Below are positions 11,908-19,713 of a stretch of DNA of 20,000 bases, in pieces (position 1 is the stretch's first letter; every line of letters starts with the position of its first letter). The translations under genes were made by a program, and so were the position numbers. The notes below the pieces were generated by a model. The model had not been told where the DNA came from. It worked only from the letters and a program-made list of their open reading frames with translations, and searched no databases. This DNA is from an uncultured virus (IMG/VR IMGVR_UViG_3300033075_000390) (lineage: Duplodnaviria > Heunggongvirae > Uroviricota > Caudoviricetes). The stretch lies in the IMG/VR virus record IMGVR_UViG_3300033075_000390. One strand, 5' to 3'.

Positions 11908-11927
11908 AGATAATTCCTAATTATTAT

Positions 11928-12560
11928 AATTTTATTGATGAAATGAACTTCGTTAAAAGAACCTTTACTGTGGTGTGAGGTATCTTATCGTTTTCCTACC
12001 ACATACTAATAATGCTTATTCACTTCTCAATAAAATTGCTAGTCTTTCCTAGCTGTCAACTTACCTAGTGCATTTCCAATCACGTTATGGAGGAGCTAGG
12101 TGGTGTAGTATTTCTACTAGACCTTTAAAAGTAACTCGTGCGTCAGTACGTGACAACCGATACACTAACCGAAGTATTAGTTGACCTTTGTGTACGGTGG
12201 AAGGTCATAACACCTGTAAGCAATGTAGCCTAACTCAACGCTGTAATATTTCATTTAAAAGGTTATTTTGATTACTTCTAAATGCACTACTAAGGTTCGC
12301 CACCCTACACCAACTTTTCAATCCACATTTTACTATCTAAACACGTTCTTCTCTGTACAAAACGCTAGAGTTGTAGTTTAGTATGAAGGTAGTGGGACAC
12401 CTATTCTATGAAACTGAGGGTGGTATTTTTGTTAAGGTGAATACCGCCAAAACACCTATTTAAGTAACCAAACAGTTTGAGTATCTACCGAAGTATCTAC
12501 CGAAGTATCTAGGCTTGTTTGGTGTTCTTTTTAGCCTAGCCCGTAGCCTTCGCTACCCTA
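11928..12560 (-). ncRNA. Candidate large structured non-coding RNA
   Basis: Many long-range helices (11, 10, 9 of 10, 8 and 7 bp), GAAA and cUUCGg loops on the minus strand, an H-type pseudoknot, and no ORF of 60 aa or more. Confidence 0.6.
12480..12511. repeat. 12-nt tandem repeat (AGTATCTACCGA, about 2.6 copies)
   Basis: Directly visible; each full unit forms a UAC-UUCG-GUA mini-hairpin on the minus strand. Confidence 0.85.
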
Positions 12561-12615
12561 AACCAATTCCGTCTTTCATAATCTTACTCCATTCATTTAA
12601 TATTTGGGTCCTCTA

Positions 12616-13149
12616 TCAAACTTCAACGTAGCGTTCAAACCTAATAATCTTCATTATTGTTGAGTGCGGTATATTAAACATTCTTGATAGAGACCTAGCT
12701 CCAAAATTTCTATCTCCATATTTAAAGTTATTCCTAATATATTTGACATCTTCTTCTGTCAACTTTCTGTTCTCTTTAGAAATCAGTTTTAAATGATCAA
12801 GACTAAGGAGACCAGTTTCAATAGCGTGAACAACGTTTCCTTGAGGAGTAACCCATTCCAAATTATCAACACTGTTGTTAAGTTTGTCTCCATCAATGTG
12901 ATTTACGAAAGGCAATTCATCAGGGTTTGGTATAAAAGCTTTAGCAACCTCTCTATGAATCTTCAACACAAGATTACTTCCTTTTCTACCATTAAGTTTG
13001 GTTACACACGCATTATAACCTTCACCAACAATATTTTGTTTTAATATCTTATTTGTTCTCAAAGAGAACAGTCTTCCCTTGTTGGATACAGAGAATAAAT
13101 CTTCATAACCAACAACACCTTTCCAAACTTCATTTTCAGCGTCTACCAT
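12616..13149 (-). CDS. NUMOD4-HNH homing endonuclease
   Basis: NUMOD4 motif EVWKGVVGYEDLFSVSNKGR; HNH motif VNHIDGDKLNNSVDNLEWVT; C-terminal HTH-like region. Confidence 0.92.
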   Translation of the reverse strand: MVDAENEVWKGVVGYEDLFSVSNKGRLFSLRTNKILKQNIVGEGYNACVTKLNGRKGSNLVLKIHREVAKAFIPNPDELPFVNHIDGDKLNNSVDNLEWVTPQGNVVHAIETGLLSLDHLKLISKENRKLTEEDVKYIRNNFKYGDRNFGARSLSRMFNIPHSTIMKIIRFERYVEV

Positions 13150-13197
13150 ATTCGCTCCTATGGTTGTTAATATTGATGAAACATCCTAGAGCGAATA
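13149..13197 (-). promoter_or_regulatory. Hairpin sequestering the RBS of the HNH gene
   Basis: TATTCGCTC (13197-13189) is perfectly complementary to GAGCGAATA (13157-13149), which covers part of the AGGAG SD and the A of ATG. Confidence 0.7.
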
Positions 13198-13258
13198 GGG
13201 TGCTTCTCGATACTAACTTGGACTCGTGTGGTGCAAAATAACCTCCTAAGTGAGTAAT

Positions 13259-13331
13259 CTCTGCGTATAGGATTCGAACCTATCTGTAGACGGTGTAGAA
13301 AACCGTTGCATATCCTATCTGCCAACGCAGA
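13259..13331 (-). tRNA. tRNA-Arg (anticodon UCU); CCA not encoded
   Basis: Acceptor stem TCTGCGT/ACGCAGA plus discriminator G; anticodon arm ACGGT-TTTCTAC-ACCGT; T arm ATAGG-TTCGAAT-CCTAT. Confidence 0.9.
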
Positions 13332-13567
13332 AGTTACTTACCTAAAGACTCGTGAGGGGAGTAAGGACAATAACAGTTCCGCTTACGATTATGCGGACTA
13401 CCTAGCAATCATACCAAAGTAAGGAGATGAACTTCAATACGAACGAGTAGCGACCTAGGAGATTTGTAGTGTGGAGTTGACTCTCCACAGATAGCAAGGA
13501 AGTTAGGAGAACTTCGATCTACCGCCTTAACCAACACAAAAAGTAATGCATGTTTTCTTGTGGGTAT
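13332..13567 (-). ncRNA. Candidate sRNA/tRNA leader with anti-Shine-Dalgarno loops
   Basis: Lies between the promoter and the tRNA. Hairpins GAAGTT-CTCCT-AACTTC, GTATTGAAGT-TCATCTCCTT-ACTTTGGTAT, TGTGGAG/CTCCACA and CCGC/GCGG. Confidence 0.55.
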
Positions 13568-13573
13568 AAGGAA

Positions 13574-13601
13574 ATTTTAACACATATTCTTCCAGTGTCA
13601 A
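13574..13601 (-). promoter_or_regulatory. sigma70-like promoter driving the leader/tRNA/ncRNA transcript
   Basis: TTGACA-16 bp-TAAAAT with an extended -10 TG. Confidence 0.7.
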
Positions 13602-13619
13602 CCTCTTTCAGCTTGATTC

Positions 13620-14090
13620 TTGCACAAAACACAAATATTTTTATATTTTTACACCAAAATCAGTTAAATTCAATCAAATTACACCAAACAAACAAGAAAC
13701 ACCACAAGATTGAGTTTAATTGAGTGTATTGGGTTTAACTCAATCAAGTATCTTCTTAGCACCTAGTACACCAACACAAACAGATCGCTTCGCTATTAGC
13801 ACCAAAACAAGGATGATCTTAAACACCAAACAAGACAACACCTAAGACAGGTATACAATCTAATTATATCTAAATAAGATTTATTCTTATTAAATCATAT
13901 ATAAGTATATCTAATACAGTATGTAATACTTAAAGTGTATATAAGATATACTTATAGTAAGTTATACAGTAAGTATATTATTAGTATTTATATTTAGTTA
14001 AGTATATTAATATATATATATTACTTAGTCTGTGTATCCTAGTTGGTACAAGATACTAGATATATAATATTATTTAAAACAGATTAAACA
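13620..14090. other. Non-coding origin-like region: CACCAAA-type repeats followed by a very AT-rich tract
   Basis: About six ACACCAAA-like motifs (13650-13845), then a TA-rich stretch (about 13855-14085), located at the transcription divergence point. Confidence 0.45.
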
Positions 14091-14117
14091 TATCCAACCC
14101 CTTGCCCCTTGATTCCA

Positions 14118-14146
14118 ATCATAAGCCCTTTGTTTTAGCTTGTCAA
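14118..14146 (-). promoter_or_regulatory. sigma70-like promoter pointing into the AT-rich tract
   Basis: TTGACA-17 bp-TATGAT. Confidence 0.65.
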
Positions 14147-14235
14147 GAGGGTAAAACCAAACATTTTTGTAACAATGACCTAAGTGTGTGTAAAACAAAG
14201 AAATTTAAATATCCTAAATTTGTTGTGTTTAGGGG

Positions 14236-14264
14236 TTGACGTATTGAATTTGGTGCTGTAAAAT
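14236..14264 (+). promoter_or_regulatory. sigma70-like promoter for the rightward genes
   Basis: TTGACG-17 bp-TAAAAT. Confidence 0.7.
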
Positions 14265-14337
14265 GAAAGACATAAACAAGAAAACACAAAAGTTAGGAGG
14301 TTTGTGTTTTTTAATTAAATTATTTGAGGAGTGATTT

Positions 14338-14880
14338 GTGTTAAATGATAAAACCTTGAGAAAGTTGTGGCACAAAATGTTTGAACGGTCTTACAACAAA
14401 AAGAGCCTTGAAAATAACCCAACATATACGGGTTGTTCTGTATCGTTGAACTTTTCCGATTACCAATATTTCAAAGATTGGTGCGTTAATCAAACTGGAT
14501 TCAACTCAGTAGATTTAAGAGGAAATGTCTTTCAATTAGATAAAGACATTTTAGTGAAAGGCAATAAAGTTTATAGTGAGGATACTTGTTGTTTTGTACC
14601 AAAAGAGATAAATGGTTTTTATACCAAAGCTAATAAGATCAGAGGTTTGTTTGCAATAGGTGTCTATTTCGATAAGAGATCACAAAAATTCATAGCAGGA
14701 TTATCTATCGAAGGTAAATATAAAATACTCGGTCAATACGACAACGAGTGGAGCGCTTTCCTTGCTTACAAACAAGCTAAAGAGAATCGTGCTAAAGAGT
14801 TAGCAGAGAAATGGCGTGGACAGATTGATAATCGTGTCTATGAAAAATTAATCAATTACAAAGTTCTTCTTACAGACTAA
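14338..14880 (+). CDS. HNH-like/AP2-domain homing endonuclease family protein
   Basis: LDKDILVKGNKVYSEDTCCFVPKEIN followed by an AP2-like region GVYF...LGQY...AFLAYK; GTG start with SD GAGGAG. Confidence 0.75.
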   Translation: MLNDKTLRKLWHKMFERSYNKKSLENNPTYTGCSVSLNFSDYQYFKDWCVNQTGFNSVDLRGNVFQLDKDILVKGNKVYSEDTCCFVPKEINGFYTKANKIRGLFAIGVYFDKRSQKFIAGLSIEGKYKILGQYDNEWSAFLAYKQAKENRAKELAEKWRGQIDNRVYEKLINYKVLLTD

Positions 14881-15503: not shown

Positions 15504-15627
15504 GAAAACAACTTAATAAAATATTAACACACCTATTGCTAATCGTATTTAGGTGTGTTACTTTATAAACACAAAGTTGTATTACGAACAATTTAATTAT
15601 TTTAACAAGGTGGTTAGGAGATGTAGA

Positions 15628-19667: not shown

Positions 19668-19713
19668 TCTGTTATGGTAAGTTTAGAGAACAAATTAATT
19701 AAGGAGATTTACT

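Follow-up and report, generated by a model that had tools for sequence, protein, structure and literature searches.

A predicted modular leader RNA upstream of a phage tRNA-Arg gene combines conserved anti-Shine-Dalgarno-like loops with a variant of a phage-only RNA family

The cuckoo RNAs of Alphaproteobacteria (alpha-r14, RSs0680/CcsR, and NfeR1) consist of adjacent hairpins with variable stems and a shared pyrimidine-rich loop that resembles an anti-Shine-Dalgarno (anti-SD) sequence, and pairing with ribosome-binding sites (RBSs) has been proposed for them (PMC4615179). The same source describes how RNAIII of Staphylococcus aureus uses exposed C-rich hairpin loops as seeds against SD regions (PMC4615179). 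In this work, we analyzed a leader with comparable loops that lies between a leftward promoter and a tRNA-Arg gene of an uncultured virus (Caudoviricetes; IMG/VR record IMGVR_UViG_3300033075_000390), within a stretch of 20,000 nucleotides that is referred to here as the window. An earlier reading of the sequence (hereafter the original prediction) had proposed that this leader is a small RNA with three UCUCCU motifs that blocks the RBSs of early phage and/or host mRNAs. To our knowledge, almost nothing is known of what phage-encoded small RNAs do.

The leader resembles the cuckoo RNAs in having several adjacent hairpins with anti-SD-like pyrimidine loops. Two to four adjacent hairpins carry CCUCCUCCC in each loop of the cuckoo RNAs, whereas the leader carries UCUCCU, with two of its three copies in hairpin loops and one in a linker. 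Moreover, the cuckoo RNAs are bacterial, often multi-copy, and terminator-ended, whereas the leader belongs to a phage, is joined to a tRNA precursor, and comes with an unrelated invariant hairpin. By analogy, the leader may work like the cuckoo RNAs without being a member of that group. RNAIII and RsaE, which are Gram-positive chromosomal regulators with C-rich UCCC loops, are similar to the leader in their exposed C-rich loops but have no sequence or structural homology to it. The Betaproteobacteria toxic small RNA (RF02278) is also a small RNA with CUCC-rich single-stranded motifs as in the leader; its model had no match in the window at E ≤ 10, and its one match elsewhere, at an unrelated locus, was to the opposite strand and depended on a terminator. 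As for genomic context, the rnaC and rnaD genes (species 1 and 2) of phage T4 (NC_000866) lie beside tRNA-Arg head to tail, with the homing endonuclease gene segB in the same region; tRNA-Arg, rnaD, rnaC, and segB stand side by side at positions 70908-71918 of the T4 record (L190), much as the leader, tRNA-Arg, and an HNH gene do in the window. These two small stable RNAs of unassigned function would also be freed by tRNA processing enzymes, but they are located downstream of tRNA-Arg, whereas the leader is upstream, and rnaC ends in a tRNA-like T arm. The closest analogues of the leader would be the cuckoo RNAs and the RNAIII-type C-rich loops by design and T4 rnaC and rnaD by context.

Our sequence comparisons indicate that the interval is a real, conserved, selected, and modular phage non-coding RNA element, and that its 3′ third (13376-13454) is a divergent variant of a widespread, phage-only, single-copy RNA family that is absent from Rfam. 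The explanation that we tentatively prefer, based on these comparisons and on analogy, is a modular leader RNA that joins SD-pairing CUCCU loops to a 3′ module of this family with a partner-binding P3 loop. The transcript would start at ∼13566-13567, and its first ∼190-235 nt would be a modular structured non-coding RNA. RNase P, whose established role is cleavage at the tRNA 5′ end, would release the leader RNA by cutting at the 5′ end of tRNA-Arg. By analogy with the cuckoo RNAs and RNAIII, the exposed and conserved CUCCU loops would most likely pair with purine-rich SD-like sequences, either in trans on mRNAs of the phage or the host or, in an ancestral state, in cis on the gene that comes first downstream, and the invariant P3 loop would contact a second conserved partner. 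The parts of the interval are as follows.

13601-13574, minus strand: sigma-70-type promoter TTGACA-16-TAAAAT with a TG extension (promoter scan, 11/12 matches, near-consensus)
13531-13567, minus strand: predicted transcript 5′ end (∼13566-13567) and imperfect 5′ hairpin H0 (conservation onset; minimum free energy [MFE] folds)
13490-13523, minus strand: hairpin H1, with outer stem GGUAG/CUAUC, internal loop AUC/CUUG, inner stem GAAGUU/AACUUC, and loop CUCCU
13471-13488, minus strand: hairpin H2, GUGGAG-AGUCAA-CUCCAC (MFE folds)
13455-13470, minus strand: linker with UCUCCU motif 2, the junction of two modules and an insertion hot spot
13505-13510, 13457-13462, and 13422-13427, minus strand: TCTCCT motifs 1, 2, and 3 (sequence search)
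13397-13454, minus strand: first part of the 3′ module, with tail GUCG, helix P1, and arm P2 (model R1, described below, aligns the tail and P1)
13378-13397, minus strand: hairpin P3, U-CCGC[AUAAUCGUAA]GCGG-A, the signature of the phage RNA family (18-mer at 13379-13396)
13333-13377, minus strand: spacer from P3 to tRNA-Arg, containing an extra CUCCCCUC at 13354-13361
13258-13332, minus strand: tRNA-Arg, anticodon UCU (ARAGORN; Rfam tRNA 47.6 bits)

The layout given in the original prediction, namely, a leftward promoter, ∼235 non-coding nt, and then tRNA-Arg, was recovered by the promoter scan and by ARAGORN, and no open reading frame (ORF) in the gap of ∼235 nt is conserved among relatives. 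A 42-aa ORF at 13409-13537 was rejected as a coding gene because its frame is not kept, with insertions of 116 and 28 nt inside it in relatives. All three UCUCCU motifs and the described hairpins lie where they had been placed, and the hairpins appear in the MFE fold. Specifically, the inner hairpin of H1 (GAAGUU/AACUUC with loop CUCCU) spans 13499-13515, and arm P2 (13411-13440) has the expected 10-bp stem with four G-U pairs (GUAUUGAAGU/ACUUUGGUAU) and loop UCAUCUCCUU. Helix P1 consists of CUAC/GUAG with flanking G-U pairs. It surrounds arm P2, which is 12 bp long, and this fold is predicted in all eight window-type sequences. In 2000 sampled structures, the CUCC cores of motifs 1 and 3 were unpaired with P = 0.96-0.99 and 0.99-1.0, respectively, and the P2 loop with P = 0.98-0.99. 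The P2 loop and its neighbours read UCAUCUCCUUA, which we take to differ at one position from the 3′ end of the E. coli 16S rRNA. Three TCTCCT in 235 nt was reached by two of 5000 dinucleotide shuffles (mean 0.20), and CTCC occurs five times in the leader compared with a shuffle mean of 1.3 (17/5000 shuffles reach it). Since some 6-mer was found at least three times in 265 of 2000 shuffles, the triple repeat by itself is only modestly unusual. Such single-sequence statistics are weak, and the case depends on comparison with relatives.

No close relative of the window was found among GenBank phages; the sole DNA match was the tRNA-Arg of Acinetobacter phage Herod (region 89% identical), and the best terminase match was 48% identical. 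The nearest record (G001) is without the leader region. IMG/VR, metagenomes, and one metagenome-assembled genome (MAG) contig yielded eight more full or partial copies of the leader (L005/L007, L006, L044/L043, L108, L126, L140, and L049). The leader block 13376-13567 is identical at 182/190 positions (95.8%) in L004 and 186/192 (96.9%) in L002, compared with 35/43 (81%) and 31/43 (72%) for the promoter and 293/426 (69%) and 296/413 (72%) for the far intergenic part. High identity extends to the near intergenic part (13611-13900; 95.5 and 85%), so conservation of non-coding sequence is not confined to the leader. In all six relatives that cover it, the near-invariant sequence begins at ATACCCAC, 6-7 nt past the -10 element. 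In the six copies spanning the promoter, the -35 hexamer is invariant, the -10 element keeps TAnnnT, and the spacer between them is variable. Downstream of P3, the first ∼30 nt of the spacer at 13333-13377 are conserved in L044, L108, L126, and L140.

Covariation and loop conservation in relatives had been named beforehand as a check, and the result agrees with the original prediction in that UCUCCU is invariant and the stems carry compensatory changes. All three motifs are unchanged wherever the segment is present, including motif 2 in all seven sequences with the linker. In L044, the most divergent copy, the H1 outer stem changes from GGUAG/CUAUC to GUUAU/AUAAC (two pairs changed on both sides), the H1 inner stem changes from GAAGU/ACUUC to GGAGU/ACUCC (one pair changed on both sides) with loop CUCCU retained, and H2 changes from GUGGAG/CUCCAC to AGGGAG/CUCCCU (two pairs changed on both sides). 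The three substitutions observed in P2 among relatives are all from G-U to A-U, which fits an RNA helix on the minus strand. The part of the proposal that holds is a conserved, strand-specific, structured non-coding RNA from a conserved promoter directly upstream of a tRNA; the strongest constraint, however, is on AUAAUCGUAA in the P3 loop rather than on CUCCU.

The 18-mer of P3 was found exactly in 34 IMG/VR contigs and 92 metagenome contigs. Of the 34 IMG/VR contigs, 27 distinct sequences are full family members, and R1, a 75-position model built here and searched in fetched loci, identified 61 full members among 80 metagenome loci with 48-80 bits. The consensus, which ends with the 18-mer in most phage matches, is 55-115 nt long and consists of AAAUCG, P1 (5 bp), GG, a variable P2, (G)AGCAUCAACA, P1′, and P3 with a near-invariant 10-nt loop; P3 has the form N-CCGC[AUAAUCGUAA]GCGG-N′, in which the outer pair covaries. 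For P1, all five pairs covary in 27 distinct sequences with 97.4% of cells paired, none of 500 shuffles matched the covariation score, and slid controls paired 20-44% of cells. Because the exact 18-mer search biases P3 toward invariance, we used a second pattern in which the P3 5′ strand was fixed and the loop and 3′ strand were free. This pattern returned 21 loci, 18 of them members, and the 14-nt stretch of loop and 3′ strand was identical in 13 of the 18; the remaining members have one loop change (four loci, two distinct sequences) or a stem change (one). The exact 18-mer also occurs in 14 bacterial or MAG contigs, 13 without further similarity and one being the window-type L049, whereas ∼17 would be expected by chance in 596 billion bases by our own arithmetic. 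These counts suggest that the family is absent from bacterial chromosomes and that the 18-mer occurs there at chance level. The 50,697 GenBank phage records contain no copy of the 18-mer, and the 17-mers found in them were chance matches within coding regions. The one cultured carrier is Limnohabitans phage DC31, with a shortened version (25.3 bits, E = 1e-4) between a tRNA cluster and a terS-like gene that precedes the terminase gene.

Each of the five phage records searched, three of which are at least 90% complete (104-344 kb), has exactly one copy. Only the window-type record (G006) shares the terminase type of the window, which suggests that the RNA crosses phage lineages; the carriers span 42-62% G+C. 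Among 68 distinct members, a tRNA starts 7-12 nt after P3 in 14 (tRNA-Met in 11 of these), a tRNA ends at the 5′ edge of the motif in five, and 49 have no tRNA within the available sequence. The genes downstream of other members are diverse, and some members are just upstream of RBSs. A terminator-like hairpin follows at least five of 47 members. In L022, L026, L035, L036, L038, and L040, all from large uncultivated phages, the family RNA is in clusters with tRNAs and permuted two-piece tmRNA genes (Rfam tmRNA_permuted at 91-129 bits in L022, L026, L035, L040, and L013; tmRNA in L036 and L038 by ARAGORN alone). The high-G+C members L016, L017, L018, L031, L033, L089, and L096 have one more hairpin (GCCGG...CCGGC) upstream of the R1 core, after which comes CAC(U)CUCAAC(G)AAAUCG, and this sharing suggests that the family is probably longer than the 75 positions of R1.

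Searches for a previous description of the family were negative within their scopes. Rfam 15 had nothing at the motif in twenty family loci at E ≤ 0.01 and nothing on the motif strand of L014 at E ≤ 10. A literature search for the loop AUAAUCGUAA found no report, and the searchable supplements of PMC10690425 had no occurrence of the loop, although three files were outside the search and the catalogue may still contain the family. T4 rnaC and rnaD did not match R1 (best 7.3 bits, elsewhere in the locus).

In the window, R1 matches 13376-13411 with 30.9 bits (E = 4.7e-6). When the L004 copy was aligned to R1, its module showed the tail (A)GUCG, P1 as CUAC/GUAG, a long P2, and an identical P3. 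The P3 18-mer is identical to that of the family, with a U-A outer pair, and helix P1 ends directly 5′ of P3 and encloses a variable arm P2 as in the family. P1 is invariant among window-type sequences and therefore offers no covariation of its own. In the 5′ tail, the window type has (A/U/G)GUCG and the family (A)AAUCG, with UCG alone in common, and the canonical member L106 has AGUCG. The junction (G)AGCAUCAACA is absent from the window, where GAUUGCUAG stands in its place. The window-type contig G006 carries one copy of the module, on the same strand as tRNA-Arg.

The copies also indicate that the leader is modular. Insertions cluster at or beside the linker between H2 and the 3′ module (L005/L007 and L049; slightly upstream in L044). 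L005/L007 have a 116-nt degenerate tRNA-like insertion between the modules (L007:3049-3164; Rfam tRNA 17.9 bits, threshold 29), and L044 has an extra 28-nt hairpin between H1 and H2. Apart from an aberrant middle, the 116-nt insertion shows an acceptor-like stem of 7 bp, a good T arm, and a CCA-like end; it received no ARAGORN call and may be a degenerate or non-canonical tRNA-like RNA. L049 has the 3′ module alone, preceded by the end of an ORF that was read by eye as an HNH gene. The sequence that follows the leader also varies. It is tRNA-Arg in the window, L044, L108, and L140, an HNH gene and then tRNA-Arg in L006, and an ORF without tRNA in L005/L007 and L049; in L126, the spacer is conserved and the sequence past it differs. 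Approximately 1.1 kb downstream of the L007 leader, a 351-aa ORF (L007:4428-5483) appears by eye to be IS200/IS605 TnpB (OrfB)-like with a C-terminal zinc-ribbon pattern. When the H2 18-mer was used as a probe for the 5′ module, only three known relatives and one chance match in a coding region were found. In our explanation, the 5′ module (H0, H1, and H2) is specific to this phage lineage.

C-rich loops were also found outside the window lineage. Among medium-length family members, the P2 apical loop is C-rich (CCC, CUCC, or CCUC) in 22 of 35, and a G-rich counterpart is present in none of the 35. Cultured Pseudomonas phages have a leader with a CCUCCUCC loop at the equivalent genomic position. 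Otagovirus and Flaumdravirus (phiPsa374, VCM, REC, and KIL1) share the layout of the window, with a TTGACA promoter, a leader at the head of a tRNA and packaging operon, a tRNA cluster, and packaging genes. In their leader, a 5′ hairpin that covaries comes before an invariant CCUG[UUUCCUCCUCCUUU]CGGG hairpin; this leader differs from that of the window in being unrelated in sequence, without an R1 match, and with one anti-SD loop instead of three. The RBS of a terS-like gene comes directly after this leader, which may act in cis. In phiPsa374 (L182:5800-5955) and L187-L189, the promoter (annotated in KIL1), the leader with the UUUCCUCCUCCUUU loop, and the terS-like gene follow one another. A blastn search with the 171-nt promoter-leader region returned 50 phage records, 41 of them over at least 80% of its length, and the loop was checked in four aligned phages.

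Concerning possible targets, both of the SD matches in the original prediction are present. AGGAGAUG is at 15616-15623, 5′ of ATG 15628, and AAGGAGAUUU is at 19701-19710 (near 19702), 5′ of ATG 19714. The longest phoH ORF begins with GTG at 15553; the start is likelier at ATG 15628, as the PHROG match starts at residue 17 and AGGAGA sits 6 nt upstream of this ATG. Given the C-rich P2 loops of many family members and the leader loop of the cultured Pseudomonas phages, SD pairing is plausible, and the reading of the leader as a putative RBS-blocking small RNA is plausible as well. Metatranscriptome contigs from four runs of two studies cover the leader, and one contig of 197 nt spans 13370-13565; these libraries may contain DNA, and contigs by themselves cannot define RNA ends or level.

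Several observations weigh against our preferred explanation. The usual SD among the plus-strand genes is AGGAGA, which counts in favour of an anti-SD reading but also makes complementarity to it generic, as would be expected of any pyrimidine tract of this kind. The CUCC core of motif 2 is only partly accessible (unpaired P = 0.29-0.53). The folding energy of the whole leader is unexceptional, with z = -1.44 and 16 of 200 shuffles equally good, and the opposite strand (z = -1.05) is overall about equal to the minus strand. There are only about five independent window-type lineages, every both-side change comes from L044 alone, and the MFE of L044 itself favours another pairing (-28.5 versus -25.0 kcal/mol). 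The metatranscriptome contig ends (13370 and 13565-13569) coincide with points of strain divergence and may therefore be assembly breaks. Within the family, C-rich apical loops are rare in short (0/8) and long (2/9) members, so SD pairing cannot be the family-wide function. The window 3′ module is without the junction GAGCAUCAACA and has GUCG for AUCG, with 30.9 bits compared with 48-80 bits for full members; due to the missing junction and the low score, we regard it as a divergent variant rather than a canonical member. Finally, in DC31, L005, L049, and the Otagovirus phages, an ORF directly follows, and cis sequestration of its SD is as likely as action in trans.

Other explanations have to be weighed against a leader with SD-pairing loops. 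One is a cis-acting element for the processing or expression of the tRNA and the late operon, which would set transcript ends, protect against exonucleases, or modify elongating RNA polymerase or the access of RNases, with CUCCU being structural or incidental. This is improbable in our judgment but deserves serious weight, as the members that abut tRNAs (directly after in 5/68; 7-12 nt before in 14/68) or sit just upstream of RBSs would fit it, the window element occupies the site of tRNA clusters in related phages, and no intrinsic terminator-like site was found in 12500-14500. Such an element would not readily account for genomes that have numerous tRNAs and operons but a single copy of the RNA, for the 49 of 68 members without a tRNA in the available sequence, or for the terminator-like hairpins after at least five of 47 members, as in a stand-alone small RNA; furthermore, the put RNA of HK022 gave zero R1 matches. 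It is about as doubtful, in our view, that the RNA is a decoy or sponge that uses the loop AUAAUCGUAA and the AAUCG tail to bind a conserved protein or ribonucleoprotein, which could be an RNase of the host, a defence nuclease that targets tRNAs, or a ribosomal factor, with SD pairing not being the function. The P3 loop is indeed the most constrained feature across unrelated terminases and 42-62% G+C, the family is found in phages only (13 of the 14 bacterial 18-mer matches are without the family signature, a number expected by chance), and it is associated with tRNA and tmRNA gene clusters. However, no Rfam family was matched, protein-binding RNAs included, and a decoy leaves unexplained why three CUCCU motifs are invariant amid changing stems in the window lineage.

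Two further explanations seem much less probable. The small family core (55-115 nt) combines invariant unpaired nucleotides, covarying stems, and a variable arm, and it abuts tRNA 3′ ends or lies 7-12 nt before tRNA 5′ ends, as might a new catalytic RNA, self-cleaving or of another type, whose role is to trim transcripts next to tRNAs. We consider this very unlikely, as no Rfam 15 ribozyme family was matched and a single copy per genome is unlike most phage ribozymes. An HDV-like or hammerhead reading of the core was rejected by eye because the helix order does not fit. The least probable explanation, to which we give very little credence, is that the interval has no RNA function and either is what is left of a tRNA cluster in decay or acts at the DNA level, for example as an internal promoter or as the target of a homing endonuclease. 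Relatives do carry tRNA clusters here, HNH genes flank and move around the interval, L005/L007 have the degenerate tRNA-like insert, and a promoter-like TTGAAG-18-TATGAT with a TG extension lies inside P2 (13437-13408). Identity of 96-97% with compensatory changes is nevertheless unlike decay, and conservation starts at the transcript start. Moreover, pairing is preserved by the P2 substitutions, one of which turns TTGAAG into TTAAAG and makes the -35-like hexamer weaker. Neither ARAGORN nor Rfam gave a tRNA or tRNA-like signal in the leader (13333-13567), with only tRNA-Arg called, and the leader was thus rejected as a tRNA pseudogene; in the Rfam 15 scan of 12500-14500 at E ≤ 10, tRNA alone was above threshold.

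For the rest of the window, the minus strand carries genes for the large terminase, portal, head, and tail proteins, and the window is part of a virulent-type phage genome. The plus strand carries phoH, a dCMP deaminase gene, and HNH genes, and a 740-bp intergenic region separates the two divergent gene sets. tRNA-Arg is the sole tRNA gene of the window according to ARAGORN. One further gene lies downstream of it in the same transcription direction, and its placement relative to the leader and tRNA changes between relatives:

12616-13149, minus strand: HNH homing-endonuclease gene (PHROG phrog_59, E = 1.8e-42)

Within this minus-strand operon, ∼700 nt at 11908-12615 are without an ORF of at least 40 aa, and parts of this segment are 90-95% identical in relatives. 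On the other side of the promoter, the adjacent intergenic stretch 13611-13900 (95.5% identical in L004; 84.7% in L002) ranked first in summed contig depth in two of four metatranscriptome runs and could hold another RNA or a regulatory region. At 13897-14012, a TAAGTATAT-like unit recurs in AT-rich repeats, both direct and inverted, with inverted repeat I3 being 94% complementary. A similar repeat field is present in the divergent region of phage DC31 (L181:11180-11480), and these repeats may be an origin or a regulator-binding array.

In a broader scheme, the RNA with tail, P1, P2, and P3 carrying AUAAUCGUAA would represent a new phage-specific, single-copy small RNA class that unrelated phage lineages share and that engages some universally conserved machinery of the host, such as the ribosome or an enzyme that processes or targets tRNAs, and the window version would have added anti-SD hairpins to become a multivalent RNA that reprograms translation in infected cells. 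We offer this scheme as speculation and consider it unlikely as a whole. The leader is a compact candidate in which a promoter-driven RNA would be joined to a tRNA precursor and would expose conserved anti-SD-like loops, and this loop theme recurs at the equivalent position in the leaders of cultured Pseudomonas phages. The family spans dozens of uncultivated phages with unrelated terminases in addition to the cultured Limnohabitans phage DC31. If a conserved host component is bound by the P3 loop, phages would have in this family a general means of taking over RNA metabolism or translation; if the loop binds no such component, the family would still be a new structured RNA class for Rfam.

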